Below, piece by piece: positions 6,465 through 62,793 of a stretch of 64,000 nucleotides of DNA. The DNA comes from an uncultured Actinomycetes bacterium. Its GTDB lineage: Bacteria; Actinomycetota; Thermoleophilia; UBA2241. The notes under the pieces were generated by a model. The model had not been told where the DNA came from. It did not search any database and saw nothing but the letters and a program-made list of their open reading frames with translations. Every line of letters starts with the position of its first letter. The stretch's first letter is position 1. The DNA lies in contig CAVRZA010000002.1 in NCBI GenBank assembly GCA_963725665.1, forward strand, positions 352,001 through 416,000, given 5' to 3'. Both the position numbers and the translations under genes were made by a program.

Positions 6465-6613
6465 AGCTCGTCCCCCTCTCGCTTCGTTTGGCACCGACCG
6501 ACGGGCAGTCGGCCGAAGGAAGCCGGCCGGGGCCGCCTTCCTGAGTCAATGCGGGTGCGCGGCGCGACCGTGAGTCGCGCCGCGCACCCCTAGGAACAGG
6601 CCGCCAGCGGCCG

Positions 6614-8237
6614 TCAGCCCGTCTCGCGCACGCCGGCGAAGAACTCGGCGTGGTCGTCGACGGGAGCCGCGGCGATGGCGTCGAGCCTCTCTTGCGGTGG
6701 CGGCGCCGTGACTAGGGTCACGACGATGCACGTAACGACACCGGCGATGACACCCCAGACCGCGTAGCCGAGCGCGCTCGCCGCCAGCTGGGACGGCCAG
6801 TAGTCGAACTCGAGCACGTACTTCTCGACGAAGTAGCCGATGAAGGCCGTGAGGCCACCTACCAGCGAACCGGCGAAGGCACCGCGCAGGTTGGCGCGCT
6901 TCCAGAACATCGCGAACACCGGCACCGCCACGCCGGCCGATAGGACGCCGCTCGACAGATAGTAGGCGTCCCACAATCCCTTCGGCAGGAGGTCGATGCC
7001 GAACGCGAAGAGGATCATCAGGAAGCACACGATGAGCGACCAGGCACGGCTCCAGGCCATGATCTTGCTGTCGCTCCAACCGCGCTTGCGGTACACGAGC
7101 GGCTGCAGGACGTCGTAGCTGATGTTCATGGCGCAGACGTTGGTGAAGGTCGCCATCGTCGACATCGACAGCGCGGCCAGCATGGGGAACAGGATGATAG
7201 AGGGCCCAGATCGGGAACTCCTGGCTCAAGAAGATGGTCATGATCTGGTAGGCGTCGCCGCCGAGCACAGCATCGTAGGCCGTCTTCGGCGGGAAGACAA
7301 CGAGAGCCAAGAGACCGAAGATGCTCGGCAGGATGAGCACCCAGATGTAGTTGTAGATGAGGTTGGCCCAGATGCCCTTGCGCGCCGCCTTCGTGTCCTT
7401 GGCCGACTGCGCCTTGAGCCACCAGTCCTCCTCGATCACCCACCCGGGAAGCAGGGCGACGATGGAGATGAAGATATACGGCACCCCCAGCGGGATAAGG
7501 CTCCAGGCGCTATAGCCCTCTCCGCTACCGGGCGGCACGACCCTTTTCAAATAGTCGTACATGCTCACCCCGGAGGGCAGGTCGCGGTAGGCGACGACGA
7601 CCATGGCGACGGTGACCACGGTGACGAAGATGATCGCCATGAAGAACTGCAGCACGTTGGAGTTGATCACCGAGTGGAAGCCGCCCATCCACATGTAGAT
7701 GGCGATCGGGATGCTGAACGCGAGGTACATCACCCACGGTTGCACGCCGAACTCGGGGGCGACGATGTGGGCGATAGTCCACACCTCGGCCGCCGACCAG
7801 ATGATGAAGGTGAAGATGTTGAACGGGCTCACCAGCACGCGCAGCGGGAGTCCGAAGCGGTTCTGCAGCATCTGCGGCTGCGAGATCGCCTTGATCGATC
7901 GCACCTTGGGCACCAACGCGACCATGCAGAACAGGAGGATGGACCAGGGTATCACCATCACCCAGATCCCCCCGAGGCCGTACATGTAGGTGCTATAGAT
8001 CGCCCAGGTGATGAAGCCGATCAGCAGCCACCCGGCGGCGATGCTGCAGCCCACGAGCAGCGCGCTTGTCGACCGGCTGGCCACCCAGTAATCCTTCTGC
8101 TGATCGTCCGCAGACCTCTTTCGGAGCATGCGGTAGATGGACTGGCCTATCCACAGGATGACCACGAAGTAGGCGATCATCGCCACCCAGAACCAGATGG
8201 CATGGCTCCCAACGGTGTCGGTTGCGGCTGCAACCAT
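6614..8237 (-). pseudogene. Sodium:solute symporter (SSS) family transporter, split by one frameshift near 7198-7200
   Basis: N-part (DYWVASRS, SQPQMLQNRFG, YMWMGGFHSVINSNVLQ) reads to ...EFPIWAL. The C-part continues in another frame (IILFPMLAALSMSTMATFTN...FWKRANLRGA). Could be a true lesion or an assembly error. Confidence 0.8.
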
Positions 8238-8432
8238 AGCTCCCCCTTTCGTAGCGATCACAGAAACGACCGTCCGCGATTCGGCCTGCGCCCTGCCGTG
8301 CGGCCGGGTGCACCAGGCCGCTCTCGCGACTCAAATGCGTCACGTTCTGCCTGCGCCCCCTTTCCTTCCGCTGCGAACGGTTTCCTGGCCACCGACGCGG
8401 GCGCGCCCCCTTGCGCGCCTGCGTCCGGATTA

Positions 8433-8515: not shown

Positions 8516-9154
8516 TCAGACCTTGACCCCGGCGAGCTCCTTGCACCGCTCGACACCGATCGACGCGTTCGGTCCGTAGCCGTCGGCACCGATCTCCTTG
8601 GCGTAGGCCTCGCTCACCGGGGCGCCACCGACGATGACCTTCACCTGGTCACGCAGGCCGGCTTCCTTGAGCGCGTTGATCGTCTCCGGCATCTTGGGGA
8701 TCGTCGTGGTGAGCAGGCCGCTCATGCCGAGGACGTCGGGCTTGTGCTCCTTCACGGCGGCCACGAAGTCGGCCGGTTTGATCCCCTTGCCCAGGTTGAT
8801 GACGTTGAAGCCGCCGCCCGCCAAGAGCATCGCCACGAGGTTCTTGCCGATGTCGTGCATGTCGCCCTCGACGGTGCCGATGACGACCGTGCCGATCGTC
8901 GCGCTCTCGCCGGCCGCCATGTGCGGCTTCACGAGGTCGAGGCAGGCCTGCATCGTCTCCGCGCTCAGAAGCACCTCGGGGATGAAGAACTCGCCGCTCT
9001 TCATGCGCTGGCCCACGACTTCCATGCCGGGCAACAGCGACTGGTCGAGGATGTCGCGCGCCGAGGCGCCGTCTGCCAGCATCTTCTCCGTCTGGGCCGT
9101 CGCGTGATCATCGCCGGCGATGATCATCTCTTTCAGCGTCTCGAAGTCTGCCAT
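8516..9154 (-). CDS. mttC: Methyltransferase cognate corrinoid protein (MttC-like)
   Basis: B12 cap domain (GEFFIPEVLLSA), DMHDIGKNLV (DxHxxG) and SGLLTTT, VGGAPV; directly downstream of mttB. Confidence 0.88.
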   Translation of the reverse strand: MADFETLKEMIIAGDDHATAQTEKMLADGASARDILDQSLLPGMEVVGQRMKSGEFFIPEVLLSAETMQACLDLVKPHMAAGESATIGTVVIGTVEGDMHDIGKNLVAMLLAGGGFNVINLGKGIKPADFVAAVKEHKPDVLGMSGLLTTTIPKMPETINALKEAGLRDQVKVIVGGAPVSEAYAKEIGADGYGPNASIGVERCKELAGVKV

Positions 9155-9198
9155 ATGCTCCCTTTCCTTCACGTCGCGTTTCCTGTCGAAGCCCGGGC

Positions 9199-10677
9199 TC
9201 AGGAGATGGCGACGCCCGCCTTCTTCTCGACATCCCTCACGATGGCGCGGATCTCGTCCTGCACGTCGCTCGGGAGCGGCTCGACCTCGTAGGACTCGAT
9301 GACCTCCTTGGCCTTCTCGTTGCAGCGCTGGTAGTAGTCCTTGCTGCCGTCCATCTCCCACTCCTCGCGCACGCGCCGGTCGATGAGCCCTGCTCTCGAC
9401 TGGTGGGCGCGCATGTTGTCGCGCGTGCTCTTGCGGGAGAGGAAGTCCTTCTCGGAGCCCACGGCCACGATCTCGTCGACCATGAGCGTGGCATCGTTGG
9501 TGGGGATGCCGCGAAGGATGTACTTGCACATGCGCGCGGTCTCGTTGTCCATGACGAGCACCGCGTAGTCGATGGTGACGCCCGACTCGATCATCCCTGC
9601 ACCGTAGATCTGGTTGGCTCCTCCCAACGCAGGTACTAGTCCGGTGATGGTCTTCTCGTGTGCGGTCTGCGCATCACCTAGTTTGGAATCCGCCTACAAG
9701 CCGGCCACGTAGCTGGGCAGCAGGTAGTAGCGCGCCAGGGCCGGGACGGCGGCGCTGATGAGTGCCAGCTCCGGTGTGCCCACCGAGGCCGTGGCCCGCT
9801 GCAGGTCGAAGGCCGTCGTCGATGAGCCGTAGATCACCGGGCAGCCCTTCTCGGCCAGCTGGCAGAGAACGACGCCGCCCAAGACCTCGGCGTTGTGCGT
9901 GACCAGTGTGCCCGCCAGGGTGACCGGTGCCGAGCCGCCGGACATGGCCATCGAGAGCGGCATCGCTGGCATGTGAGCGCGCGCGGCCGAGATCATGCAG
10001 CCGGTGAACTCGCCCATCAGCTTCAAGGGGCTGACCGGGCAGCTCAGGAACTCGAGCATGGGACGCTCGGCCAGCTTGTCGCGGCCGCCGACGACGGCCG
10101 CCGCGGCGTCGATCGTTAACTCGGCGCCGTGATGGTTGAGCGCCAGGCTACAGATCGGCTTGGTGGTGTTGAGCAACGTGGCCTCGATGAGGTGCGCCTC
10201 GGCGACCTCCGGAGCGACGTCGTTGGCCGTCACGGCGACGGTGTAGACCTCGATGTCGTCGAGGGCGTCGACCAGCTTGGCGAGGTCACCGACGTCTTTC
10301 TTGGTCGTCTGGCGCAGCTCGCCTGTGTAGGGGTCGACCGCCTTGACGCCCTCGGCGAAGTTGGTGTAGCTGACGCGCTTGCCCTCGAGGACGACGTCCT
10401 TGTCGGGGGTGCGCCCGCAGAGGACGACCTTGGAGGGCGCCCAGGAAACGGTCTCCTCCAGGACGTGCTGCGGGATCCTGACCTTGCGCTCGGCCCGGTC
10501 CACCTTGCAGCCGCCGTCGGCGAAGAGGTCGAGAGCCTCGTCGTCCTCGACCCAGAGGCCCGTCTTCTCGAGCACTTCGACGGTCGCCCAGTGGATGTCG
10601 TCGAGCTCATCTTGGGTGAAGATCTCGACGCCGAGGCCTCCGTTGCGGAGACCGCCGGCATGCTGGGGTCGGATCAT
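9199..10677 (-). CDS. mttB: Pyrrolysine-containing trimethylamine:corrinoid methyltransferase (in-frame TAG at 9694-9696)
   Basis: ORFs 9694..10677 and 9199..9627 share a frame separated only by TAG. Read-through gives [44 protein letters not shown], the Pyl-site context of MttB; 492 aa in total. Confidence 0.93.
9620..9693 (-). promoter_or_regulatory. Candidate PYLIS-like stem-loop immediately 3' of the amber codon
   Basis: mRNA pairings UUCCAA/UUGGGA, ACUAG/CUAGU, GUGAUG/CAUCAC and inner UGCG/CGCA; 12 of 25 codons end in A/T versus 1 of 25 before the TAG. Confidence 0.55.
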
Positions 10678-11359: not shown

Positions 11360-14300
11360 TCAGTCGCAGGTCATCGCCGCGTGCCCGGCGCGCCACTCGG
11401 CGTCGCTGGGCTCGCCGCACTTCTCGAGCAGCTCGTCCCACTCCCTGTCGACCCACTCCTCGAGCGCGCTCAGCACGCCCTCGTTGCCGGCCTTGAAGAG
11501 GTGCCCGAAGCGTCCCTGCTTCTTGAGCCATGGCGTCACCGGCTCCTTCTCGTGTGGCCGGTAGCTCAGGTGGTAGACGCCGTTCTCGACCTCGAACAGC
11601 GGCCAGTAGCAGGTGTTGACGGCCTCGCGAGCGAGCTCGATCGACGAGGCCCCCTCGCTGCGCCAGCCGCGGGGGCAGGGCGAGATGATGTTGAGGAAGG
11701 CCGGGCCGGGGGTGGCGAGGGCCTTGGCCGCCTTGCGCACCAGGTCGCGCGGGTCGTGCGGCGAGGCCTGGGCGACGTAGGGGATGCCGTGGGCGATCAT
11801 GATTCCGGTCAGGTCCTTGCGCTGCTGCATCTTGCCCGTCTGCTCAGCCCCGACGGGGCTCGTCGTCGTCCAGGCGCCGAGCGGCGTGGCGCCGGAGCGT
11901 TGGAAGCCGGTGTTCATGTAGGCGCCGTTGTCGTAGCAGACGTAGACGAGGTCGTGGCCACGCTCCATCGCCCCGGAGAGGGACTGCAGCCCGATGTCGT
12001 AAGTGCCGCCGTCGCCGCCGAAGGCGATGAACTTGACGTTCTCCGCGATCTTGCCCTGCTTCTTCAGGGAGCGGTAGGCGGTCTCGACGCCCGACAGCGT
12101 GGCGGCCACGTTCTCGAACGCGGTGTGGATGTAGCTGTTCGTCCATGAGGTGTAGGGGTAGATCGTCGTCGACACCTCGAGGCAGCCGGTGGCCGCCGCG
12201 GTCACGACCGGCTCGCTCGTGCCCATCAGCACCTGACGGGCCACGATCGGCGCGCCGCAGCCGGCGCACAGCCGGTGGCCGCCGGCCAGCTTCGAGCCCT
12301 GGGCGACCAGCGTGTGCCACTGCTCGCGGCCTTGCTCGAAGACGTTCGTCTCCTTGAGCGCGTCGACAGGGCAGACGTCGACGCACTGGTGGCAGAAGGT
12401 GCAGCGCGCCTCGTCGACCGCGTACGACTGCAGGACGCGGTGGTTGAAGCTGAGTGCCCCCGTCGGACAGGCCGTGACGCAGCGGCCGCAGGTGATGCAG
12501 TCGGCCAGTTGCAGCGACTCGCCGTAGGGCGTGTCGACCTTGATGCGGAAGCCGCGGCCGCTGAAGTCGTAGCAGGCCGGGCCGGCCACGTCGGCGCACA
12601 CGCGCACGCAGCGCCCGCAGGCGATGCACTTGTTCATGTCGCGCTCGATGAACGGGTGTCGCGCGTCGGACTCCTCGCGGCGCACGAGGCCGGGCGCCAA
12701 GGTCTTGGTCGCGGCGATCACGAGCTCGTTGTCGGTGATGTCGTACTCGATGCCCAGCCGCTGCAGATCGCAGCTGCCGTTGGCGTCGCAGACGCACTGC
12801 AGGCAGCGCGCCGCCTCGGCGCGCGCGGCCGCCGGAGTGAGTCCCCGCTCGACCTCGGTGAACGAATCGAGGCGCTTGGCCGCCGTCAGCTTGCTCTGCC
12901 GGGCGCGCGGCGCGGTGTCGGCGCCGATGCCCATCCTCAGCCAGACCGGGGCGTGCTCGGCCAGTCGCTGGCCGAGCTCACCGAGCTGGGCGGCGTCGCG
13001 TACCTGCTCGAGGTAGGGAAGGGCGGCGTAGAGCGCCAGCTTGCCCTCGAGCTCTTCGAGGTCGCTGCCCGAGAGCCAAGCGTCCATCGCCAGCGCCGCT
13101 CGCTTGCCGGCGGCGACGCCGTGGATGGCCGCCTTGGCGCCCGTCACGGCGTCGCCGCCGGCGAAGACGCCCTCTTGCGAGGTGCGCCCCGTGAAGGGGT
13201 TCGCCTCGAGCGTGCTCCACGATGACAGCGAGAGCTCGCCCTCGATCGTCTCGGCGTCGGGCGTGTAGCCCTGGGCCCAGAGCACGGTGCGCGCCGGCAC
13301 GTCGCGCGCCGCGGCCTTGGTGCGCTTCACGCCGTCGGCGTCGAGCTCGACGACCTGGACCGCGGCCGGCTTGCCGCCGCGGTCGAGCTTGATGCGCCGC
13401 GGCTCGACGGCGAACTCGAAGCGCACACCCTCGTCGCGGGCGGCGGCGACGTCGGCCGCGCCGGCCTCGACGCGGCGTTCCTCGTGCCGGCAGAGGACCG
13501 TCACCTCAGCGACGCCGAGACGGCGCGCGGAGCGGGCGGCGTCGAGCGCGGCGGAGCCGTCGCCGACGACGCAGACCGCGCCGCCGAGGCGCGGCTTCTT
13601 GCCGGCGCGGACCTCGGCGAGGAAGCCGAGGGCGTCGCGGGCCAACTTGCCGCCGGGGATCGTGACGGCCTGGCTCTTCCAGGCGCCGACGCCGACGAAG
13701 GCGGCGTCGTAGCCGCCGGAGAGCAGGCCGGCGAGCGAGATGTCGTCGCCGAGCCGTACGTCGCCGACGAAACGCGCGCCGGCCTTCCACAGGGGAGCCA
13801 GCTCGTTCTCGACGACCCCGGTCGGCAGACGGAACTCGGGGATGCCGTAGCGCAGCATGCCGCCCGGTTCGTCCTTGTCGTCGTAGACGGTCACGGCGTG
13901 GCCGGCCTGAAGCAGGTAGTAGGCGGCCGTCAGGCCGGCCACGCCGGCGCCGATGACGGCGACCCGCTTGCCGGTCGAGGGTGCGCACTCGATGTCGTCG
14001 GGGGCGCGGTCGCCGGCAGCCCGGTGCAAGGCGCAGATGGCGATGGGCTCTTCGACCTCACCGCGTCGGCAGACCGGTTCGCACGGCCGCGTGCAGATGC
14101 GCCCGAGGATGCCGGGGAAGGGCAGGTCGCGGCGCACGATGGCGGCCGCGGCGCCAAAGTCGCCCTCCTCGACCTTCGCGATGAAGGCGGGGATGTCGAT
14201 GTGTGCGGGGCAGCTCACCGAGCAGGGGGCCTCGCAGTAGGAGTTGTGGTCCGAGAGGTACATGCGCAGGTAGTTCGCCCGCCGCTCGCGTACGCGCTCT

Positions 14301-14551
14301 GTGTCGGTGTGCACGACGAGGTCGTCCTGCACCCAGGTCGTGCAGGCGGCCTGCAACTTGCCCCAGCCCTCGACCTCGATCAGGCAGAGGCGGCAGGCCG
14401 CCCAGGGCGCCATGCCTTCCTCGGCGCAGAGGGCCGGGATGTCGATACCGGCGCGCTGTGCCACCGCGAGCACGCTCTCGCCCGGCTGCGCCGATACTCG
14501 CCGCCCGTCGATGGTCAGCTTCACGGTTGCGGCCTTGGTATGGGTGCTCAT
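11360..14551 (-). CDS. Fusion: HydA/NuoG-like N-terminal Fe-S region + GltD/NfnB-like flavin module + ferredoxin motifs + pyruvate:ferredoxin oxidoreductase beta (TPP) subunit
   Basis: [2Fe-2S] ALC..ACRLC..AAC; APCSVSCPAH, GRICTRPCEPVC, VIGAGVAG, FAGGDAVTG (GltD-like); three CxxCxxCxxxC motifs; GHRLCAGCG, TGCLEVSTT, GGDGGTYDIGLQSLSG, YDNGAYMNTG (PorB). Confidence 0.9.
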   Translation of the reverse strand: MSTHTKAATVKLTIDGRRVSAQPGESVLAVAQRAGIDIPALCAEEGMAPWAACRLCLIEVEGWGKLQAACTTWVQDDLVVHTDTERVRERRANYLRMYLSDHNSYCEAPCSVSCPAHIDIPAFIAKVEEGDFGAAAAIVRRDLPFPGILGRICTRPCEPVCRRGEVEEPIAICALHRAAGDRAPDDIECAPSTGKRVAVIGAGVAGLTAAYYLLQAGHAVTVYDDKDEPGGMLRYGIPEFRLPTGVVENELAPLWKAGARFVGDVRLGDDISLAGLLSGGYDAAFVGVGAWKSQAVTIPGGKLARDALGFLAEVRAGKKPRLGGAVCVVGDGSAALDAARSARRLGVAEVTVLCRHEERRVEAGAADVAAARDEGVRFEFAVEPRRIKLDRGGKPAAVQVVELDADGVKRTKAAARDVPARTVLWAQGYTPDAETIEGELSLSSWSTLEANPFTGRTSQEGVFAGGDAVTGAKAAIHGVAAGKRAALAMDAWLSGSDLEELEGKLALYAALPYLEQVRDAAQLGELGQRLAEHAPVWLRMGIGADTAPRARQSKLTAAKRLDSFTEVERGLTPAAARAEAARCLQCVCDANGSCDLQRLGIEYDITDNELVIAATKTLAPGLVRREESDARHPFIERDMNKCIACGRCVRVCADVAGPACYDFSGRGFRIKVDTPYGESLQLADCITCGRCVTACPTGALSFNHRVLQSYAVDEARCTFCHQCVDVCPVDALKETNVFEQGREQWHTLVAQGSKLAGGHRLCAGCGAPIVARQVLMGTSEPVVTAAATGCLEVSTTIYPYTSWTNSYIHTAFENVAATLSGVETAYRSLKKQGKIAENVKFIAFGGDGGTYDIGLQSLSGAMERGHDLVYVCYDNGAYMNTGFQRSGATPLGAWTTTSPVGAEQTGKMQQRKDLTGIMIAHGIPYVAQASPHDPRDLVRKAAKALATPGPAFLNIISPCPRGWRSEGASSIELAREAVNTCYWPLFEVENGVYHLSYRPHEKEPVTPWLKKQGRFGHLFKAGNEGVLSALEEWVDREWDELLEKCGEPSDAEWRAGHAAMTCD

Positions 14552-16482
14552 CAGTTCCTCCCTCCGGCCACGGCGGTCAAGACGCCCGGTGACTCGACGT
14601 CGATGGCATCGAAGTTGCAGACCTGACGGCAGGTATCGCACTTGATGCAGAGCCTCTGGCTGATCTTCTGGACCTCTTTGCGCTCGCCGCTGACGGCCTT
14701 GGTGGGGCAGGCGACGTTGCACGCGAAGCAGCCGGTGCACTTCTCCTTGTTGACGGTGTAGCGGATGAGCGGCCGGCAGACCTTCGCCGGACAGCGCTTG
14801 TCGAGCACGTGGGCCACGTACTCGTCGCGGAAGTAGCGGATGGTCGTGAGGACGGGGTTGGGGGCGCTGCCGCCGAGCTGGCAGAGCGAGCCTTCGATGA
14901 CGTCGTCGGAGAGACGCTCGAGCAGATCGATGTCGTCGAGCGTGCCTTCTCCGGCAGTGATGCGCTCGAGGATCTCGAGCATGCGCTGCGTGCCCACGCG
15001 GCACGGTACGCACTTGCCGCAGGACTCCTCCGCCGTGAACTTGAGGAAGAACTTGGCGAAGTCGACCATGCAGGTGGAGTCATCGACCACCACCATGCCG
15101 CCGGAGCCCATCATCGAGCCCAGCGCGACGAGACTCTCGAAGTCGATCGGCGAGTCGAGGTACTCGGCCGGCACGCAGCCGCCCGAGGGACCGCCGAGCT
15201 GCACGGCCTTGAACTCGCGTCCGGGCTGCATGCCGCCGCCGATGTCGAAGATCACGTGACGCAGCGTGGCGCCCATGGGCACCTCGACGAGGCCGCTGTT
15301 GCGCACCTTGCCGGTCAGGGAGAAGATCTTCGTCCCCTTGGACGTCGCCGTCCCCATGCTCGCCAGCGCGTCGGCACCGTGGGCGATGATCCAGGGCACG
15401 GTAGCGTAGCTCTCGACGTTGTTGAGGTTCGTCGGCTGGCCGTAGAGGCCGTGGGCCACGGTGCGGATGTGCTTGCCGCGCGGCATGCCGCGACGGCCCT
15501 CGATGGAGGCCGTCAGGGCCGTCGACTCGCCGCAGACGAAGGCGCCGGCGCCCTGGTTGATGCGGATGTCGAAGTCGAACCCCGAACCGAGGATGTCCTC
15601 GCCCAGCAGGCCGCGCTCGCGCGCGGTCGCCAGCGCGAGACGGAGGCGTTGCACGGCGAGCGGGTACTCGTGGCGCACGTAGACGAAACCCTCGACGGGC
15701 ACGGTCCCCGATGCGATGGCGAAGGCGGCGATGATCATGCCCTCGATCACCGAGTGGGGGTTGTCCTCGAGGATGGCGCGGTCCATGAAGGCGCCCGGGT
15801 CGCCCTCGTCGCCGTTGCAGATGACGTACTTGCGCTCGCCGGGGTTAGCACGGCAGAAGCGCCACTTCTTGCCGGTCGGGAAGCCGGCGCCACCGCGACC
15901 CCGCAGGCCGCTCTTCTCGACTTCGTCGATGACGGCTTCGGGGTCGCCGCCGGCGAGCACCTTCGCCAGCGAGCTGTAACCGTTGCGAGCGAGGTAGTCG
16001 TCGATGGAGGTGGGGTCGATGAAACCGTTCGCCTCGCGCGCGACGCGCACCTGCGAGGCGTAGAAGGGGACGTCCTTCTCCTCGACGATCGTCTCGTCAG
16101 TCTCGGGGTGCCGGTACAGCAGGCGCTCGACGACCTCGTCGCCGACGACGCTCGTCTCGATGATGGAGGCGACGTCGCGTGCCTTGAGGCGCGGGTAGAA
16201 CACGCCCCGCGGATGGACGACGACGATGGGGCCTTCCTGGCAGAGACCGTGACAGCCGGTCTCGACCACCGCGACGCGGTCGCTGAGGCCACGCCGGGCA
16301 AGCTCCTCGTCGATGGCGGCGCGCAGGGCGGCGCGGCCTGAGGCATTGCAGGTCGTGCCGGCGCAGACGCGGATCTTGACCTCGTCTTCGCCCGGAGTCG
16401 CGTTCTCGGGATGGAACGCCCGCTTCAGGGCTCTTTCGATGGCCGTGGCCCGCCGGGCCGTTGATCGTGCCGTCGCAGCCAC
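14551..16482 (-). CDS. HydB/BfuB (NuoF-like) FMN/NADH-binding bifurcating subunit
   Basis: N-terminal thioredoxin-like [2Fe-2S] (CAGTTC, GCHGLC), SGLRGRGGAGFPTG, NGDEGDPGAFMDR, ESCGKCVPCR, H..DKRCPAKVC and C-terminal 2x[4Fe-4S]. Confidence 0.93.
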   Translation of the reverse strand: MAATARSTARRATAIERALKRAFHPENATPGEDEVKIRVCAGTTCNASGRAALRAAIDEELARRGLSDRVAVVETGCHGLCQEGPIVVVHPRGVFYPRLKARDVASIIETSVVGDEVVERLLYRHPETDETIVEEKDVPFYASQVRVAREANGFIDPTSIDDYLARNGYSSLAKVLAGGDPEAVIDEVEKSGLRGRGGAGFPTGKKWRFCRANPGERKYVICNGDEGDPGAFMDRAILEDNPHSVIEGMIIAAFAIASGTVPVEGFVYVRHEYPLAVQRLRLALATARERGLLGEDILGSGFDFDIRINQGAGAFVCGESTALTASIEGRRGMPRGKHIRTVAHGLYGQPTNLNNVESYATVPWIIAHGADALASMGTATSKGTKIFSLTGKVRNSGLVEVPMGATLRHVIFDIGGGMQPGREFKAVQLGGPSGGCVPAEYLDSPIDFESLVALGSMMGSGGMVVVDDSTCMVDFAKFFLKFTAEESCGKCVPCRVGTQRMLEILERITAGEGTLDDIDLLERLSDDVIEGSLCQLGGSAPNPVLTTIRYFRDEYVAHVLDKRCPAKVCRPLIRYTVNKEKCTGCFACNVACPTKAVSGERKEVQKISQRLCIKCDTCRQVCNFDAIDVESPGVLTAVAGGRN

Positions 16483-16483
16483 G

Positions 16484-17236
16484 TCAGGCCTCCTTCTTGC
16501 GACGAAGCTTGCGGACTAGCCGTCGCGCCTCGTTCGGGGTCATGCGACCGAAGGTCTCGTCCTCGCCAAGGCGGACGGCCGGGGCGAGGGCGCAGGCGCC
16601 GACGCAGTTGACCGTCTGCAGCGTGAAGAGCTCGTCGGGGCTCGTAGCGCCGATGGCGATGTCGAGCTCCTGTGCGAATGCCTCGGCCACGAGGGGAGCG
16701 CCGGCCACGTGGCAGGCCGTCCCCATGCATACACTGATCACATGCTTGCCTACGGGCTCCAGCCGGAACTGGTTGTAGAACGTCGCCACGCCGTAGACCT
16801 TCGAGAAGGGCATGCGTATCTCGTCAGCGATCTCCTCGAGCGCCCTGCGCGGGAGCCAGCCGAAGGAGTCCTGCGTCGCATGCAGGGCCTCGATCAACCC
16901 TGACCCGTCGCGCAACCGTTGTGCGACGTCGTCGAACTTGGCCATGTCGATCTCGGGCTGTGCCTCGGCGCGCGCCGCCTTCTCAGCAGCGGTGTCCCAG
17001 GGGAGGTCGGGGTGCTCGGGGCAATAGTCGATCTCGATGCAGTCGACGGGGCAGACGCGCTCGCACAGCGTGCAGGCGTAGCAGCGGTAGCCGCCGCGGC
17101 CGTCGCGAACCAGGTCGAAGAGCCCCCGCCCGCGCGCCTTGCCGAGCAGTTCGCGCTTCTCGAAGTCGATGCCCTGCAGCACCTCGTAGAGGGTCGGTGC
17201 CGTCCGGAGCTTGCCGTTGCCGTTGCCCGCCATCAC
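16484..17236 (-). CDS. HydC/BfuC (NuoE-like) subunit with an extra N-terminal CxxCxxCxxxCP motif
   Basis: VATFYNQF, CMGTACHV, CVGACALAP; N-terminal RCYACTLCERVCP. Confidence 0.9.
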   Translation of the reverse strand: MMAGNGNGKLRTAPTLYEVLQGIDFEKRELLGKARGRGLFDLVRDGRGGYRCYACTLCERVCPVDCIEIDYCPEHPDLPWDTAAEKAARAEAQPEIDMAKFDDVAQRLRDGSGLIEALHATQDSFGWLPRRALEEIADEIRMPFSKVYGVATFYNQFRLEPVGKHVISVCMGTACHVAGAPLVAEAFAQELDIAIGATSPDELFTLQTVNCVGACALAPAVRLGEDETFGRMTPNEARRLVRKLRRKKEA

Positions 17237-18441
17237 TGCTCCTCGTCCTTGCGCAGGTTCAGGTAGCGCCGCTTCACCGGGATCTCCTCGCCGGCCGCTG
17301 CGCTCTGGAGCACGGCGTAGGCCTCCTCGATGTTGGCGGGGAAGATGTCACGCCCGCCGAGGCCGTAGATGAAGGGGTAGATCTCGGGTCTCGTGGCGCA
17401 GTCGTACAGCGCCGACCGGACCTCGAGGAAGATGGGGCCGCCCTGGGCGCCGAACGAGTCGGCGCGATCGAGGACCCCGACCACCTTCACGCCCTGCAGG
17501 GCGTCGACGTACTCCTGCACGGGGAAGGGCCGCAGGGTGCGCACTTTCAGCACGCCCGCCTTGACGCCGGCGTCGCGCAGCTGATCGACGACCGTGCGCG
17601 TCGTCCCGGCCGTTGAGCCCACGACCACGATCGCGATCTCGGCGTCGTCGAGCCTGTAGGTCGAGAAGTGGTGATAGCGACGGCCGGTCAGCGCGGCGTA
17701 CTCCTCGGCGACCTCGTCGATGACGCGCAAGGCGCGCTCCATGGCGCGGTTCTGCGAGACCTTGTGCTCGAAGAACCAGCCGTGCAGGCCATCGAACGGG
17801 CCCACCGTGACGGGGTGCTTCGTGTCAAGCATCGGGTTGACGGCCACGTAGGGGCCGATGAACTCCTGCACGGCCTCGTCGGAGAGCATATTGAGCGGAC
17901 CGATGGCGCCGCTCACGATGAAGCCGTCCATCATCGTCATGACCGGCAGCCGCACCTCCATGTGCTCGGCGATGCGCACGGCCATCAGGTGGTTGTCGTA
18001 GGCCTCCTGGTGGTCCTCGCCGTAGAGCTGGATCCAGCCCGTATCGCGGGCGCCCATGGAGTCGGAGTGGTCGCAGTGGATGTTGATCGGGCCCGAGAGG
18101 GCGCGATTGACGTTGGCCATGACGACGGGCAGGCGGTAGGACGACGCGAGGTGCAGGAGCTCCCACATGAGAGCGAGGCCCTGCGAGCTCGTCGCGGTCA
18201 TCGTGCGCGCGCCGCCCGCGGCGGAGCCGATGACCGCGCTCATCGCCGAGTGCTCGCTCTCGACCGTGATGAACTCCGTGTCGACCTTACCGTCGGCGAC
18301 GAACTGGGCGAAGATCTGCACGATCTCAGTCGCCGGGGTGATGGGATAGGCGGCCACGACGTCGGGGTCGATCTGGCGCATGGCGTTGGCCACGGCCTCA
18401 TTGCCGGTGACCGCGATGGTGTTCACGTCGAGGGTCGCCAC
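17233..18441 (-). CDS. porA: Pyruvate:ferredoxin oxidoreductase alpha subunit
   Basis: TGNEAVA, AAYPITPAT, VESEHSAMS, TATSSQGLALM, PINIHCDHSD, YGLGGRD; GTG start after AAGGAG. Confidence 0.93.
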   Translation of the reverse strand: MATLDVNTIAVTGNEAVANAMRQIDPDVVAAYPITPATEIVQIFAQFVADGKVDTEFITVESEHSAMSAVIGSAAGGARTMTATSSQGLALMWELLHLASSYRLPVVMANVNRALSGPINIHCDHSDSMGARDTGWIQLYGEDHQEAYDNHLMAVRIAEHMEVRLPVMTMMDGFIVSGAIGPLNMLSDEAVQEFIGPYVAVNPMLDTKHPVTVGPFDGLHGWFFEHKVSQNRAMERALRVIDEVAEEYAALTGRRYHHFSTYRLDDAEIAIVVVGSTAGTTRTVVDQLRDAGVKAGVLKVRTLRPFPVQEYVDALQGVKVVGVLDRADSFGAQGGPIFLEVRSALYDCATRPEIYPFIYGLGGRDIFPANIEEAYAVLQSAAAGEEIPVKRRYLNLRKDEEQ

Positions 18442-18443
18442 GG

Positions 18444-18863
18444 TCACTCCTTCTCTTCGAGCAGCATGGTGATGGCCTTCGGGGGGCACTCGTGGGCGCA
18501 GATGCCGCATCCCTTGCAGTGCGCCAGGTCGACGGCGACCGCCTTGCCACCCTCGACGATGATGGCGGCGTCGGGGCAGTAGAAGTAGCAGAGCATGCAG
18601 CCGATGCACTTCTCGACGTCGATCTCGGGCACGAAGGTGCGCCAGCCGCCGGTCTCGTTGTAGATCGAGTTGCCCGCCTCGGGGATCACGGCCCCGAGCT
18701 CGTGACGGTCCGGGCCCCACTCCTGGATGTCGGAGATGTCCCAAGCCGGCTTGGGAGGGGCGCCTTTCGTCCCGTCGCCCTTGGCCCCGCCGCTCGCCGC
18801 GCGTGGGCCCTTGGGCGCCTTCGCCGCAGCGGGACGGGCGGCCGGTTTCTTGCTCGGAGTCAT
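18444..18863 (-). CDS. porD: Pyruvate:ferredoxin oxidoreductase delta subunit (2x[4Fe-4S])
   Basis: TGGWRTFVP, KCIGCMLCYFYCPD, HCKGCGICAHECP. Confidence 0.93.
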   Translation of the reverse strand: MTPSKKPAARPAAAKAPKGPRAASGGAKGDGTKGAPPKPAWDISDIQEWGPDRHELGAVIPEAGNSIYNETGGWRTFVPEIDVEKCIGCMLCYFYCPDAAIIVEGGKAVAVDLAHCKGCGICAHECPPKAITMLLEEKE

Positions 18864-19468
18864 TCGCCCTGGACCTCCTCGTAGGCGCGCTGGAGCGCCC
18901 GGATGTTGCCTTCGACGACCTTGGGCGGGAACTTGTGGCCAAAGTCCTCGCGCATGAACTCGACGACGTCGTCGAGCGGGAAGAGCTCGGTCGCACGCAC
19001 TAGGGCGCCGACCATGGGGGTGTTGGGGATGGCGCGGCCGATGGTCTCGGTGGCGATGCGCGTCGCCGCGACGGCGTAGAGCCGGCCTCCCTTGATGGCG
19101 TACTTCGCACGCAGCTGTTTGGGCGCCAGGTCGGTGTTGACGATGAGGACCGCGTCGGCGGACGTGCCGTCCATCACGTTGACGATGTTGAGCAGGCTGG
19201 GGTCGAGCACGACGACGATGCCGGGATGCTCGATGCCGGAGTAGATCTGGATGGGCGCGTCGCTGATGCGCGTGAAGGCGACGATGGGCGCGCCGGAGCG
19301 CTCGGGCCCGTACTCAGGGAACGCCTGGAAGTACTTCTTCTGGCCGAGCGCGACCTCGGCGACCATCTTGGCCGCGGTGACCGCACCCTGTCCGCCGCGG
19401 CCGTGCCAGCGGATCTCGGTCATGCGTGCGCCGGGCGCCTTCTCGCGATCGGCAGTCTTGGTCTTCAC
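18860..19468 (-). CDS. porC: Pyruvate:ferredoxin oxidoreductase gamma subunit
   Basis: EIRWHGRGGQGAVTA, FPEYGPERSGAP, IPNTPMVGA. Confidence 0.93.
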   Translation of the reverse strand: MKTKTADREKAPGARMTEIRWHGRGGQGAVTAAKMVAEVALGQKKYFQAFPEYGPERSGAPIVAFTRISDAPIQIYSGIEHPGIVVVLDPSLLNIVNVMDGTSADAVLIVNTDLAPKQLRAKYAIKGGRLYAVAATRIATETIGRAIPNTPMVGALVRATELFPLDDVVEFMREDFGHKFPPKVVEGNIRALQRAYEEVQGE

Positions 19469-19471
19469 GTC

Positions 19472-20077
19472 TCACCCCACCTGTCCGCGGCTGACCTCGC
19501 GCCGGCCGGCGAGAGCGCGGCCTAGCGTGAGTTCGTCTGCGTATTCGAGATCGCCGCCGACCGGCAGCCCGCTGGCGAGGCGCGAGACGCGCACCGCCTC
19601 GGGAAGCAGGTCGGCGATGTACAGTGCCGTAGCTTCGCCGGTCATCGTCGGGTTCGTGGCGAGGATGACCTCCCGGACCCCGTCGTCGACACGCCGCACC
19701 AGCTCGACCACGTGCAGGTCGGCCGGCTCGACGCCGTCGATGGGCGACAGGGCGCCGCCGAGCACGTGGTAGAGGCCGTGGAACTCGCGCGTGCGCTCGA
19801 TCGGCACAATGTCGGCCGGCTGCTCGACCACGCAGATCACGCTCGCATCGCGCCTCGTGTCGGCGCAGATGCCGCAGAGCTCGCCCTCGGCGAGATTGAA
19901 GCAGCGCGTGCAGAAGCCGATCTTCTCCTTGACCTCGACGATGGCCGCGGCGAGGGGAAGCACGTCGTCGGGGCGTTGTCTCAGGATGTGGAATGCGAGC
20001 CGCTGCGCGGTGCGTGGGCCGATGCCGGGAAGCTTGGCGAGCTCCGTGATCAGGCGTTCGACCGCAGGCGAATACAC
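19472..20077 (-). CDS. recR: Recombination mediator RecR
   Basis: LPGIGPRTAQRLA, C4 zinc finger, YHVLGGALSPIDG, LEYADELTL. Confidence 0.97.
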   Translation of the reverse strand: MYSPAVERLITELAKLPGIGPRTAQRLAFHILRQRPDDVLPLAAAIVEVKEKIGFCTRCFNLAEGELCGICADTRRDASVICVVEQPADIVPIERTREFHGLYHVLGGALSPIDGVEPADLHVVELVRRVDDGVREVILATNPTMTGEATALYIADLLPEAVRVSRLASGLPVGGDLEYADELTLGRALAGRREVSRGQVG

Positions 20078-20271
20078 GCTTCGTTACACTCCCTCGAGAG
20101 ATCGGGCGGCTCGTGCCGTTTCCGGCACCTGAACAAGGCGACAAGCCAACCACCGATTTTATGTGGCAGCCGGCCCACCGGCAACGCCGGTGGGCTGTCG
20201 CCGGCGGCCACCGCCTCGCCTCGCGGGGTGGTGACCCGCGCGGGGCCCGGCGCTGCGCCGCGGTAGACGGA

Positions 20272-20452
20272 CCACCCCTTATCCCACCCTTCACAAGCGA
20301 CCCGCCGGAGCGACGCTTGCGTCGCTGCAGACGGCGTTTCGAGGCGGCTTGCGGGACCGGCCCGGTGTGAGCGGAGACTCTCGTGCTCCTGTGCACAAGA
20401 GTACCGTGAAGGAGCCCGTCATTCAAGGTCTTGGGCCCGGTCTTGCAGGGAG
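20272..20452 (-). ncRNA. Candidate structured non-coding RNA of unknown family in the ybaB-recR gap
   Basis: Nested stems: CCTTCAC/GTGAAGG (20288-20294 / 20406-20412), AGCGACGC/GCGTCGCT (20309-20326), CUCUUGUGC/GCACGAGAG (20378-20401, a G-U pair only on the - strand); boundaries approximate. Confidence 0.4.
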
Positions 20453-20540
20453 TTTTGCCGGAGCGGCGGACCGCTGCGCCGGCAGGGAGAGCCGGCGCAC
20501 ACCTCTGAGGTGCGCGCGAGGGGCGCTTGCGTCGCCTCTG

Positions 20541-20864
20541 CTAGAAGAGTCCGGGGATGTTGGGCAGGTCGAGGCCCTGCGTGGCGCCGCCGAGCTTCTT
20601 TTGTGCCAGGTCCTGCGCGGAGCGCAGCGCCTCGTTGGTGGCCGCCATGACCAGGTCCTGGAGCATCTCGACGTCGTCGGGGTCGACCGCGTCCTTCTCG
20701 ATGTGCACCTCGCGCACCTCGAGGTTGCCGCTTGCGACCACCGTCACCATGCCGCCGCCGGCACTCGCCGAGACGGTCTCGCTGGCGAGCTCCTCCTGCG
20801 CCCTGGCCATCTGCTCCTGCATCTTCTGGACCTGCTTCATCATCTTGGAGTAGTTCTGGTTCAT
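20541..20864 (-). CDS. ybaB: YbaB/EbfC nucleoid-associated protein
   Basis: [34 protein letters not shown]; between dnaX and recR. Confidence 0.95.
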
Positions 20865-20880
20865 CTGGGGGGCGTCTCCT

Positions 20881-22860
20881 CTACTCGTCCTCGGGCAGGA
20901 CCCGTGCGTCGAGGGTCTGTTCAACCATTTTGACCTTCTCGGCCAGGCTGAGGCTCTTCTGGGGAGCGGGCGGCGGCGCAGCCGCCGCCCGCTCCCTCTC
21001 ATTCACCACGTACTCGACCGCGAACGCGCCGCCGCTCACCTCGTGCAGCGCCGTTGTCAGCATCTCGGTGTTGGCCGGCTCGCGCACCTTGCGCAGAGCG
21101 AACTCGGAGGGCACGGCCACGGTGAGCACGCCGTGCGCCAGCTCCGTCGGTCGCGCCTCCTTCAACGCTCCGTACAGCGTCGCGTCACGCCTCTCGAGTT
21201 GCTGGAGCACGAGGTTCCAGCCGCGCTTGAGCTTCTCGAGGCTCGGATGCTCGGGCCCCAAGTGTTGCGGGGCCGGCCCCGCTGGTTCGGGCGCCGTCGC
21301 ATCGGATGCAGACGCCGCTGCAGCGGCCGGTCCTTGGCTCGCCTCAGGCTCGGCTGCCGCTGACGGCGCCTCTGCTTCCGGTGACGGCGCCCGCGCCGAC
21401 GGCGCCGCCGAGTCCGATGACGGCTCGGCGGTCGTCGCCGAGGGCTCGCCTGCTGCGGCCGGCTCAGGTGGCGCGGTCGGTCCAGGCGCCGCGGGCGGCT
21501 CGGGGCCGCTTGCGACGTCGGTGGCAGGCGGCACAGCCGAGACGGCGCCGACACTCGCGGCGCCGGCGTCGCCGCCCTCGTCACGGACGCCGGGCTCGAC
21601 GCGCGTCGCGGCGTCGCCGACGGGTGGCGGCGCGCCCGGAGTCCCACCGGCTACCGGACGCCTGCCGCTCGCGGCCTCGAGGCGGCGCAGGCGCTCCTCG
21701 AGGCCGTCGGGCGAGAGGTCGACCTGCGGCTTGGTCGCCTTGACCAGGGCGAGCTCGAGCTGCAGCCGGCCGTCGAGGCCCGCCTTGATCTCGCTCTGGG
21801 CGTCGCCCAGCAGCTCGATCAGGCGGACCAGCTCGGCCGGCCGCAGGTTGTTGGCCTGCTCCTGCACCTTGTGCAGGCGCGCGTCGCCGAGCCCGAGACC
21901 GGTGTCGAGTGAGCGCACCACATCGGGGTCGCCGGTGTCGGAGTGCTGCACGATGAAGACGTGTCGCAGGTGGGTGAGGAGCTCCTTGATGAACTGCGCG
22001 TAGTTGGGCCCCCGCTCCGAGAGGCGTTGCACGAACAGAAGCGCTCCGGCCGCGTCGCGGTCGATGACGACGTCGGTCAGCTCGAAGAGGAGCTCGTCCT
22101 CGACCACGCCGAGCACGTCGAGCACGTCGCGGGCCTTGATCGTCTGGCCCTCGAAGAAGGTCACCATCTGGTCGAGGACGCCGACCGCGTCGCGGAAGCT
22201 TCCCTGCGCGTGCTCGGCGATCTCGGCCACGGCGGCGTCTTCGATGTCGATGCCCTCGCTCGCGGCGATGCGGCGCAAAACGTCGCGGATCTCGGGCAGC
22301 CCCGGGCGCTTGAAGTCGAAGCGCTGGCAGCGCGAGAGGATCGTCGTGGGGATCTTGTGCGGCTCGGTCGTGGCGAGCACGAACACCACGTGCGCCGGTG
22401 GCTCCTCGAGCGTCTTCAGGAGGGCGTTGAAGGCCGCCTCGGTGAGCATGTGGACCTCGTCGATGATGTAGACCTTCGACCGGCCGCGCACCGGTTGAAA
22501 GGCGACCTTGTCGCGGATCTCACGGATGTCGTCGATGCCGCGGTTCGAGGCGGCGTCCATCTCGATGACGTCGAGCGAGGTGGAGGCGGCGATGGCGACG
22601 CACTCGTCGCACACCCCGCAGGGCGTGACGGTCGGAGCGGTGACCGGCGTGCCGTCGGGGTTCTCGCCCACGCAGTTGAGCGCCTTGGCGAGGATCTTGG
22701 CCATGCTCGTCTTGCCGATGCCGCGCGGTCCGGCGAAGAGGTAGGCGTGCGCGACGGCGCTCGTGGAGACGGCGTTCTTGAGCGTGCGCGCCACGTGGTC
22801 CTGACCGACGACCTCGTCGAACGTCTGGGGACGGTACTTGCGGTAGAGGGAGAGCTTCAT
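20881..22860 (-). CDS. dnaX: DNA polymerase III subunit gamma/tau
   Basis: [46 protein letters not shown]; Pro/Ala-rich linker. Confidence 0.97.
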
Positions 22861-22950
22861 GGTCGGCCTAGTGTACCCGCGGTCGCCGACAGCGTGAAGG
22901 AGGTGCGGGCGCGAGCCCGCCGTCGCCGGGGGTAGACGGGGGGTAGACGT

Positions 22951-23224
22951 ATGGCCGCGCACCCGCCGTCGAGTACCATCCTCCGAGCGTCCCTGCCGGT
23001 GGCAAGCTCCGGCCGGGCGCCCCCGCGGCACATGGAAGTGCCTGCTTACCGCTGCTTCCTTCCGGACCTGACGGGGTTCGCAGGGTCCCATTGCGCGGGA
23101 CCCGGCCATCAACGCCGCACGCCGGCCGACGGCCTCGCGGGACGGCCCCTCGGGCGGGGATTCAGCCCCGCTGTAGCGGATTGCGGGTACAGGGCACCGC
23201 TAGCTCCCCGCCTAGCGCGACCAT
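22951..23224 (-). ncRNA. ffs: Signal recognition particle RNA, large (Alu-domain-containing) bacterial type
   Basis: S-domain CAGGUCCGGAAGGAAGCAGC; 5' GCUAGGCGGGGAGCUAGCGGUGCCCUGUACCCGCAAUCCGCU Alu-like region; ends pair; upstream of dnaX. Confidence 0.92.
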
Positions 23225-52036: not shown

Positions 52037-52957
52037 TCAGATCCTCAGGTAGGAGTCTGCGTAGATGACCTGGTTCTGCAGCATGCGGTAGGTCTTAAGG
52101 AGCGCCACCTGGTCGGGGTCATCGCCGTCGACCAGACGCTCGTCGAGCTCCTCCATGACCGCCGTGGCGTCGTGTAGCGCCAGCACCAGCCTGTTCAGCG
52201 GCGTCGAGTCATCGCGCTCCTCCACGACCCTGATCCACTCCATCTGCACCGCGTCTAGCGGGTCGGCGATGGCGCTGTCGAGCCCGGCCCCCATGAGCAT
52301 GACCAGGTAGGCGCGGTTGATCAGCGGGCGCGAGTCCGGGTCGCAGCCGTTGGAGACGTTGGAGAGTCCCACGGTCGTCGTCGGCGGCGGGTCGGCGAGC
52401 ATCTTGAACATGCGGATCGCCTCGACCGAGACGTGGGCCACGTCCTGGTTGCAGGTCACGGTGAGCACGAGAGGATCGAGGAAGACGTCTTCGACCGGCA
52501 CGCCGGCGGCCTCGGCGGCGGGCAGCAGGGCCTCCATGGCGATGCCCACGCGGCCGTCGGAGGTCGTGGGGATGCCCTCGACGCCCATCGTCAGAGAGAT
52601 GACGCGCGCCTTGTGGCGCGCGGCGAGCTCCATGACCCTGTCGAGGCGCTCCGGGTCGGCCGAGGCCGAGTTGAGCATCGCGCGCTGCTTGCAGACGGCG
52701 AGCCCGGCCTCCATGGCGAAGAGGTTCGTGGTGTCGAGTGAGAGCGGCACGTCGACGACCTCCTGGACCGCCTCGACGATCCAGGGCATGATCTCAGCCC
52801 CGAGCTTCTTCTGGGGCCCGATGTTCAGGTCGAGGATGCCCGCGCCGGCCTCGACCTGGCGCACGGCGAGCTCCTGGATGTAGCCCGCTTCGCGCCCCTC
52901 GATTGCCTCCTTCACGCGGGGAGAGATGATGTGGATGTTCTCACCGATGATGAGCAC
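52037..52957 (-). CDS. acsE: Methyltetrahydrofolate:corrinoid Fe-S protein methyltransferase
   Basis: MLIIGENI, LDLNIG, PLSLDTTN, FLDPLV, VGLSNVS, GLDSAIADP; last gene of the acs cluster. Confidence 0.9.
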   Translation of the reverse strand: MLIIGENIHIISPRVKEAIEGREAGYIQELAVRQVEAGAGILDLNIGPQKKLGAEIMPWIVEAVQEVVDVPLSLDTTNLFAMEAGLAVCKQRAMLNSASADPERLDRVMELAARHKARVISLTMGVEGIPTTSDGRVGIAMEALLPAAEAAGVPVEDVFLDPLVLTVTCNQDVAHVSVEAIRMFKMLADPPPTTTVGLSNVSNGCDPDSRPLINRAYLVMLMGAGLDSAIADPLDAVQMEWIRVVEERDDSTPLNRLVLALHDATAVMEELDERLVDGDDPDQVALLKTYRMLQNQVIYADSYLRI

Positions 52958-55870: not shown

Positions 55871-55906
55871 CCTGTCGTTGCTTTGCTCATGTATCCAGAG
55901 ACACCA

Positions 55907-57253: not shown

Positions 57254-57269
57254 CGAACTCACCTGCCTT

Positions 57270-58286: not shown

Positions 58287-58337
58287 CGCTTCACTCCTCA
58301 AAGGGTAGGGAGGGATTGCCACAAGGAAGGGCGCCCA

Positions 58338-60620: not shown

Positions 60621-60622
60621 GG

Positions 60623-62701: not shown

Positions 62702-62793
62702 TGAGCTGCTCCTCGCGTCGAGACGGCGGGCGGGGGCGCGGCGCCAACCCTCGCGGGTGCGCGTCGGTCCTGCCGCCGTCGTGTGATCGGACG

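Follow-up and report, generated by a model that had tools for sequence, protein, structure and literature searches.

A six-gene pyruvate oxidoreductase operon with PorB fused to an NfnA-type BfuA and a split NuoI connector: a candidate bifurcating complex in an uncultured actinobacterium

We analysed a stretch of 64,000 nucleotides from an uncultured, anaerobic Actinomycetes bacterium of the class Thermoleophilia (the window; contig CAVRZA010000002.1, positions 352,001 to 416,000, assembly GCA_963725665.1). Six genes at 11360-19468 combine the subunits of a pyruvate oxidoreductase (POR) with a module of the bifurcating Bfu family, and PorB, the beta subunit, forms the C-terminal part of a 1063-residue fusion protein. 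On balance we favour, with moderate confidence, a single complex of the six gene products that mainly oxidises pyruvate and couples the reduction of NAD+ with that of ferredoxin (Fd). The reaction would be 2 pyruvate + 2 CoA + NAD+ + Fd(ox, 2 e-) -> 2 acetyl-CoA + 2 CO2 + NADH + Fd(red). One soluble POR-Bfu complex working with NAD(H) and ferredoxin had already been proposed in a first-pass annotation, and it is still the best reading in view of the PorB fusion, the ligands of BfuB and BfuC and the bifurcation-type residues. By its sequence, the fusion is a variant of a Bfu class that was predicted in 2022.

The gene order, the coordinates and the fusion length of the first-pass annotation were correct. 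All six genes lie on the minus strand and abut or overlap, with a TGATG at the boundary of bfuB and the fusion gene. The gamma subunit gene porC (18860-19468, 202 residues) matches PF01558 and scored above the cut-off of TIGR02175; the delta subunit gene porD (18444-18863) scored above that of TIGR02179 and has both CxxCxxCxxxC motifs intact. The alpha subunit gene porA (17233-18441, 402 residues; PF01855, PF17147) has its best match in the Protein Data Bank (PDB) in the alpha subunit of the Methanosarcina acetivorans pyruvate:ferredoxin oxidoreductase (PFOR; 9BT4, E 6.6e-88), and the alignments gave the motif YPITP of pyruvate enzymes versus the YPIRP of oxalate oxidoreductase. Then follow the NuoE-like bfuC (16484-17236, PF01257) with an N-terminal half-NuoI extension, the NuoF/HydB-like bfuB (14551-16482, assigned by Pfam and by alignment to 7T2R) and the fusion gene (11360-14551), assigned by Pfam, PDB matches and AlphaFold to an NfnA-type BfuA, a second NuoI half and PorB. 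PorA, PorB, PorC and PorD are thus all present, with the thiamine pyrophosphate (TPP) motif and three [4Fe-4S] sites. When promoters and terminators were scanned for, two weak sigma-70 matches appeared, and terminators were less frequent than in shuffled sequences. The host genome (3.7 Mb, completeness 97.5%, contamination 5.0%) contains two further, distant PorB-like genes, so that the only porB of the first-pass annotation is the only one of the operon and not of the genome.

The Pfam domains of the fusion are Fer2_4 (8-84), Fer4_20 (105-183), Pyr_redox_2 (196-481), Fer4_Nqo3 (633-700), Fer4 (711-733) and TPP_enzyme_C (788-955). Residues 1-700 had their best PDB matches in proteins of the NfnA/StnC type (9BOV with E 8.8e-142, 8OH5 and 9N5U) and residues 753-1029 in the PFOR beta subunit (9BT4_C, E 8.2e-79). 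The AlphaFold model (mean pLDDT 84.8) led to the same assignment with Foldseek. The earlier description of an N-terminal iron-sulphur (Fe-S) region with a GltD-like flavin insert stood, and only its HydA label had to be replaced by NfnA/StnC. Among the 23 Pfam families listed there was no H-cluster or molybdopterin family, and the operon has no membrane subunits, both as annotated before.

Homologues were searched with residues 480-1063, which gave 378 proteins at E <=1e-30. Among the matches listed, 105 of the 119 non-self 90% clusters have at least 1000 residues and both parts of the protein; these 105 full-length fusion clusters are 57-74% identical to the host's fusion. The cysteines of the A1 [2Fe-2S] domain (14258-14530; C42, C53, C56 and C70) were invariant in all of them, as were those of the A2/A4 2x[4Fe-4S] region (12452-12655, Fer4_Nqo3; C642-652 and C685-695). 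Between the two lies A3 (H102, C106, C588, C594) with the inserted GltD/NfnL arm that holds A6, A7 and FAD (12770-14257); the A3, A6 and A7 ligands were assigned by alignment to 9BOV and to the cluster description in PMC11829005. The second NuoI-type half (12317-12448; C717, C720, C723, C727) is followed by the PorB TPP domain (11417-12304), which has the [4Fe-4S] ligands C762, C765, C790 and C959, the GDG and YDNxAYMNTG motifs and the match to 9BT4_C. The PorB motifs were conserved in 97 to 105 of the 105 clusters, depending on the position.

When representatives at 50% identity were searched, the whole protein was covered by just one of the best 150, and the fusions therefore form one tight clade. 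The six-gene order was kept in 11 of 13 fusion loci of named metagenome-assembled genomes (MAGs), which are labelled Thermoleophilia, Actinomycetes or Actinomycetota; the other two loci begin within the fusion gene. In these MAG loci the fusion reading frame was unbroken in 6 cases and frameshifted in 5. The junction of half-NuoI and PorB was then probed with residues 690-800 (E <=5e-39, rows counted by hand). In the host's own family (f1) 45 of 55 genomes had it and in family f4 37 of 55, as against 0 of 190 in ten other families of the class. The tally for the class as a whole was 83 of 301 genomes, every one from these two families. A sample of 300 genomes from the phylum had it once, in family f4. 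Mis-assembly of the fusion, which the first-pass annotation had named as a way to refute it, is rejected by its conservation across the 105 clusters, the MAG loci and the class genomes. In the search of sequencing reads, no run contained half of the sampled words. In contigs of four runs from relatives, all 30 bins were covered, though only in short pieces, and among the contigs listed from these runs none spans the PorB junction. One RNA run held short pieces of the fusion, which is not a demonstration of transcription. The fusion gene is often annotated automatically as formate dehydrogenase or as plain PorB, and one genome (G106:C6, loci L109 and L110) has two complete fused operons 2.5 Mb apart.

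BfuB aligned from end to end with bifurcating HydB and NfnB proteins, and the match to the Acetomicrobium mobile HydB (7T2R) had an E value of 2e-240. It has an N-terminal thioredoxin-like Fe-S site, the FMN/NAD site, B1, the zinc site B2 and C-terminal B3/B4, and all BfuBC cofactor ligands were present in the aligned sequences. The residues given for bifurcating enzymes by Losey et al. (PMC7311640) in the relevant passage are A/E232, M234, F367 and GGPSG; the corresponding A-F-M, F and GGPSG were found in 12 of 12 Por-linked BfuB copies, and so were the B1 motif, the N-terminal site and the two C-terminal motifs. The pattern scan for B2 missed every row through its spacing, and the Cys/His/Cys/Cys ligands were visible in the alignment to 7T2R and 8A6T. 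The C1 [2Fe-2S] ligands of BfuC (C170, C175, C211, C215) were conserved in 112-113 of 114 homologues. Judged from the sequence, BfuB is of the bifurcating type and has the sites of a Bfu-family member. The host genome has six NuoF-family genes (C1, C2, C4, C6), four of them with bifurcation-type residues, and an additional split copy at C3:132286-133166.

The operon also contains a NuoI protein cut in two, which had been overlooked before together with its complex I origin. A lone CxxCxxCxxxCP motif is found in BfuC and another just ahead of PorB (fusion residues 717-727), one per chain. The BfuC N-terminus (17012-17191) carries the first NuoI-type 2x[4Fe-4S] half with C52, C55, C58 and C62 and the conserved C66 and C72; it matches the TIGR01971 profile at positions 19-62 (E 3.3e-8). 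C52-C62 and C72 were present in 114 of 114 homologues and C66 in 111 of 114. The second half (fusion residues 702-745) covers positions 69-109 (E 1.2e-11), with no overlap to the first, and occupies the place of A5 and the FdhF-like domain of NfnA. Folded alone, it had a pLDDT <50. When BfuC 1-95 and fusion 575-1063 were modelled together, the complex scored 0.73, against 0.00 for the best of 3 controls. Of 157 solved complexes 116 attained the mark, and of 215 mismatched pairs 2 did, counts that apply only roughly with our own alignments. The runs shared at least 87% of the contacts and the partner had a pLDDT of at least 62. In the model C723 contacts C58, strand 708-713 pairs with strand 66-71, and the BfuC interface extends to residues of PorB and to the A4 motif (679-689). 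The two parts of a split gene tend to score well through their likeness to solved NuoI structures, and the model therefore indicates that the two halves still fit like NuoI and is no demonstration of binding in the cell.

A standalone gene in which both halves are joined directly ahead of PorB was found in all 20 loci fetched from the second-best matches of the junction search (L111-L130), and also at L013:8644-10314. The 20 loci have no porA, porC or porD within the 5-15 kb fetched, and acs-cluster genes stand beside 8 of them. This rejoined NuoI-PorB nests within the fusion clade (100/100) and its AlphaFold model (pLDDT 57.8) was too poor for use. A genome search did not find the gene in the host. 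It derives from the fusion and may provide a POR that works with ferredoxin only with a spare beta subunit.

The flavin arm of the fusion was compared with 132 NfnA-like controls, kept from 143 representatives. NADP is bound in such proteins through the GGGN/F-T-A and YRR motifs. YRR was found in 0 of 105 fusions and in 129 of 132 controls, GGG[N/F] in 1 of 105 and in 126 of 132, and conservation within the fusion is lowest in the NADP domain (0.50, as compared with 0.71-0.89 for most other parts). These alignments indicate that NADP binding is lost across the whole fusion family, which extends the earlier remark that the second nucleotide motif is degenerate. The FAD motif GxGxxG was kept in 104-105 of the 105 fusions, the Asp of GD in 91, and the A3, A6 and A7 cysteines in all. 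Arg241, the equivalent of StnC R239, was present in 98 fusions and replaced by Lys in the other 7. The ligand of A7 is His (His176) in 103 of 105 fusions and Lys in 131 of 132 controls; the Stn paper (PMC10482914) describes R239 and the importance of the A7 Lys K170 in StnC. The A7 His was considered as a sign of decay and rejected, since it also occurs in Nuo-linked copies with intact NADP motifs. The present job of the FAD arm may be structure or electron storage.

For the electron path, passages of PMC11829005 describe FAD-A7-A6-A3-A2-A1 in the Caldicellulosiruptor saccharolyticus NfnA with A2-A4-A5 as a dead-end remnant, and the Stn paper likewise treats the A4 branch as non-functional (PMC10482914). 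In the fusion the split NuoI and PorB stand at the end of this branch and the NADP entry is decayed, and we therefore infer that the pyruvate electrons enter there. They would pass from TPP to the PorB cluster, probably via PorD, to the split NuoI-type 2x[4Fe-4S] and A4, and then over A2 and A1 to B1/FMN/C1, where they would divide between NAD+ and ferredoxin, the latter reached through B3/B4. The A4 branch would thus be a live input and the arm A7-A6-A3 a retained, probably NADP-blind side arm. A small 2x[4Fe-4S] ferredoxin is encoded at C2:120825 of the host genome. With the potentials in Table 1 of Schut et al. (PMC9304861; pyruvate -500, Fd -500, NADH -280 mV), NADH and Fd average -390 mV. 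The coupled reaction is then about 110 mV downhill for oxidation and equally uphill for synthesis, and adding NADH therefore makes synthesis harder than with Fd alone.

The cassette probably came from complex I. The host nuo operon (C1:430473-445514, L081) has the order nuoA-(B)-C-D-H-[nuoI5'::bfuC]-bfuB-[nfnA::nuoI3']-J-(K)-L-M-N, where a paralogous bfuC-bfuB-nfnA cassette (C1:434407-439671; BfuC 51%, BfuB 65% and NfnA 40% identical) stands in place of nuoI, between nuoH and nuoJ. The nuoI5'::bfuC gene was found in 29 of 29 genomes of the own family and in 0 of 25 of family f4. The NADP motifs of the Nuo-linked NfnA are intact in the host and in 9 of 11 metagenome copies; one of the other two is degenerate and one unclear, and the copy in genome G014 is degenerate. 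From its genes, the host operon is a candidate membrane-bound, bifurcating complex I fed by NADH, ferredoxin and NADPH. In the nuo operon of family f6 (L104, G024:C1:4000-23000) the nuoI 5' half forms one gene with a shortened NuoF, and nfnA::nuoI 3' half follows. This NuoF has no bifurcation-type residues (SEK, no GGPSG) and the NfnA NADP motifs are intact, which makes the operon a candidate non-bifurcating complex I fed by NADPH and NADH. One f6 genome was read, and a match similar to nuoI5'::bfuC was given by 6 of 6. An NfnA tree from a quick search separated the 15 Por-linked and 4 Nuo-linked proteins from the controls, of which it included 45 out of 132 (SH-aLRT 95 for the dividing branch), and the f6 NfnA was outside the group of Por-linked and own-family Nuo-linked proteins (93).

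The probable receiving locus was found in relatives. All 8 fusion-free class genomes that were examined have a plain porC-D-A-B, which in two lies behind dnaX-recR as in the host, and the fused PorB branches among these plain-locus PorB proteins. The cassette was therefore probably inserted between porA and porB. In the window, dnaX, a probable ybaB and recR (19472-23112, minus strand) run into porC with a gap of 3 bp; the dnaX-recR-por linkage was seen again in relatives and in the Halanaerobiales loci L015 and L016. Most simply, a bfuC-bfuB-nfnA cassette would have entered nuoI, a copy with both nuoI halves would have moved between porA and porB, an in-frame fusion to porB would have followed and the NADP site would then have decayed. 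What serves complex I as the wire to NuoB would here be the wire to POR. The direction from nuo to por is inferred from NuoI being native to the nuo operon.

Several other explanations of the operon were weighed. The Bfu module could be a parallel route to NAD+ on the same wire, with PorD still feeding free ferredoxin. Both PorD motifs are intact, electrons from pyruvate run downhill or on the level to either acceptor, so that thermodynamics does not force a coupling, and residues 716-1022 match the beta subunit of an enzyme that is NADH-linked by its family name (NF045766, phenylglyoxylate dehydrogenase). We regard such loose coupling as unlikely, as the bifurcation-type features of BfuB were kept in all 12 copies and their loss in the f6 complex I copy shows that it is visible when it happens; moreover Wor-Bfu, also a low-potential system, is described as strictly coupled in a passage of Schut et al. 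(PMC9304861). A different proposal makes the FAD arm a catalytic third port of a four-way hub, with NADP(H) bound otherwise or with another acceptor. The largely or fully kept FAD glycine motif, GD Asp, cluster cysteines, A7 His and Arg241/Lys would suit this, and the A7 His is no sign of decay. The near-absence of YRR and GGG[N/F] from the fusions and the varied substitutions in the least conserved domain, a pattern of decay and not of a new specificity, make it improbable.

The example role in the first-pass annotation, taken as confurcation of NADH and ferredoxin to make pyruvate from Wood-Ljungdahl acetyl-CoA, has a small chance of being right. The reaction is reversible in principle, acsB lies 40 kb away within the window and Schut et al. 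propose a gluconeogenic use for the Dehalococcoides type (PMC9304861). Synthesis would have to run against the 110 mV, roughly +42 kJ per two pyruvate as computed from the Schut potentials. The tie to the pathway was assessed by the presence of acetyl-CoA synthase (ACS, PF03598) in 54 genomes of f1 and f4, hand-picked from those with any junction-search match; the counts include related genomes, which are not independent, and incomplete MAGs. Both fusion and ACS were found in 17 genomes, the fusion only in 23, ACS only in 14 and neither in 0. Thus 23 of 40 fusion genomes have no ACS match, two of them with 1-2 contigs and 98% completeness, 14 of 31 ACS genomes have no fusion and 14 of 14 non-fusion genomes have ACS. 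On these counts the tie is rejected. A need for a ferredoxin-only form in synthesis would account for the acs-cluster neighbours of the cassette-free NuoI-PorB (8 of 20 loci). The substrate, finally, may not be pyruvate, or not only, and could be 2-ketoisovalerate for example, to which we give a slight chance. With the NCBIfam pyruvate synthase models PorA scored 486.7 (cut-off 550) and PorB 352.8 (cut-off 405), both below the equivalog cut-offs, and Vor models match as well (alpha 332, beta 285.5 bits). The Por scores are higher, however, the best PDB matches are the M. acetivorans PFOR, and the genes occupy the lineage's own porCDAB locus beside dnaX-recR.

Some observations weigh against the coupled oxidative complex that we favour and against the history given for it. 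The cluster ligands of the FAD arm and Arg241/Lys are all kept, which a dead arm would not need. PorD keeps both clusters, and free ferredoxin might draw electrons there and uncouple the reaction. PorA and PorB lie below the cut-offs, and pyruvate is therefore likely as the substrate and not proven. The sequence criteria for bifurcation are correlative and no proof, and the complex model covers BfuC 1-95 and fusion 575-1063 and gives their contacts. The direction of the reaction is a further point: one passage of Schut et al. suggests gluconeogenic pyruvate synthesis for the Dehalococcoides type, and different passages suggest oxidative and synthetic uses (PMC9304861). The NfnA tree comes from the quick search with its partial set of controls, and compositional bias was flagged. 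Family f4 has the Por cassette and no Nuo-linked one (0/25), so that the history has to include either a loss or a transfer.

The complex I origin and the coupled enzyme can be joined in a wider reading that we put forward tentatively, as possible and not as probable. The cassette would be portable, the input end of a bifurcating complex I that has been unplugged, and the split NuoI would form on assembly and act as a socket that plugs into NuoB/D in the membrane complex and into POR here. The enzyme would be a strictly coupled pyruvate:(NAD+ + ferredoxin) oxidoreductase with a 1:1 output matching the input of the organism's own Nuo-Bfu. In some relatives the rejoined NuoI-PorB would be a spare beta subunit, with which the same PorACD would work as a pyruvate synthase on ferredoxin only.

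Other genes of the window and genome were noted. An mttB gene of the trimethylamine methyltransferase family (9199-10677, minus strand) has an in-frame TAG at codon 328 and would give 492 residues if read through. A PylS C-terminal domain scored above the cut-off at C6:296347 of the host genome, and the two suggest the use of pyrrolysine; no tRNA was found in 3.7 kb around pylS. A corrinoid protein gene (about 8516-9202) comes after mttB. A sodium:solute symporter is apparently split over two frames (6546-8261 and 6614-7183, minus strand; PF00474 on the first part), apparently by a frameshift or a sequencing error. The ACS gene (PF03598, C2:411109) lies within an apparent carbon monoxide dehydrogenase/ACS cluster at about 52900-62900 (minus strand). 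In a second 2-oxoacid oxidoreductase, at C1:520050-524726 (L083), the PorC-like subunit forms one protein with a GltD-like flavoprotein and a ferredoxin domain.

Por-Bfu was previously predicted from gene neighbourhoods only. That two families keep the PorB fusion in roughly three out of four of the genomes sampled is evidence, of a genetic kind, that the parts form a single physical machine. The fusion also offers a defined object on which to ask what Bfu modules do for low-potential reactions, a question that is still open. A bifurcating module appears to have moved between complex I and a TPP enzyme together with its connector, and an Fe-S branch that is dead in Nfn and Stn would have been revived. 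The NADH and ferredoxin balances of these uncultured soil and sediment actinobacteria would have to be redrawn.

Among the known systems, the nearest is Por-Bfu (Por-BfuABCDEFG), which passages of Schut et al. 2022 (PMC9304861) present as predicted and uncharacterised, in line with what the first-pass annotation had supposed. There it has seven separate subunits, a Type 2 BfuA without A3/A5, a BfuB of clade 35, 44 or 45 and 12 sequences from Chloroflexi and Proteobacteria. Both operons combine POR genes with a BfuBC core, and for both a coupling of pyruvate to NAD and ferredoxin is proposed. In contrast, the host has six genes, PorB is bound covalently to an Nfn-type BfuA with A3 and the FAD arm, the NuoI connector is split and the hosts are of the Thermoleophilia type. 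An independent origin from the published Por-Bfu is likely. No publication on the PorB fusion or the split NuoI was found in a partial coverage of the literature, and a mention elsewhere is possible. The Nitrospirota loci L022 and L044 were considered as the unfused form and rejected, since neither a GltD arm nor a half-NuoI is present in their BfuA. They have bfuC-bfuB-bfuA (NuoG-like) directly upstream of an unfused porCDAB, a separate Por-Bfu arrangement.

With Nfn-Bfu and Stn (C. saccharolyticus NfnABC 9BOV, Sporomusa ovata StnABC 8OH5, Thermococcus sibiricus NfnABC 9N5U) the fusion shares the architecture of residues 1-700 (A1, the GltD-split A3, A6/A7/FAD, A2/A4), the BfuBC type and, with Stn, the equivalent of Arg239. 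It differs by the half-NuoI and PorB in place of the FdhF-like domain and A5, by the lost NADP motifs, by His in place of the A7 Lys170, and by an A4 branch that is called non-functional there and would probably be the input here. As to complex I, the connector comes from NuoI, and a complete nuo operon has the paralogous cassette in its nuoH-nuoJ interval; unlike NuoI, the connector is cut in two on BfuC and BfuA with its two motifs not in one chain, and the Por operon has no membrane subunits. The published Nuo-Bfu is Type 3 and from other phyla, and its description in the passages of PMC9304861 mentions no NADP arm or split NuoI.

Phenylglyoxylate dehydrogenase (Pad) resembles the fusion in a beta subunit with an N-terminal Fe-S extension and in a route that ends in pyridine nucleotide, but the fusion scored far below the Pad family cut-off (218 of 700). 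Pad is an NADH-dependent 2-oxoacid oxidoreductase that is not known to have a BfuBC core or to bifurcate. The heterotetrameric PFOR of M. acetivorans (9BT4) has the same PorA, PorB, PorC and PorD with their TPP, substrate and cluster motifs, whereas in the host PorB is not free and an insert between porA and porB encodes three flavo/Fe-S proteins.

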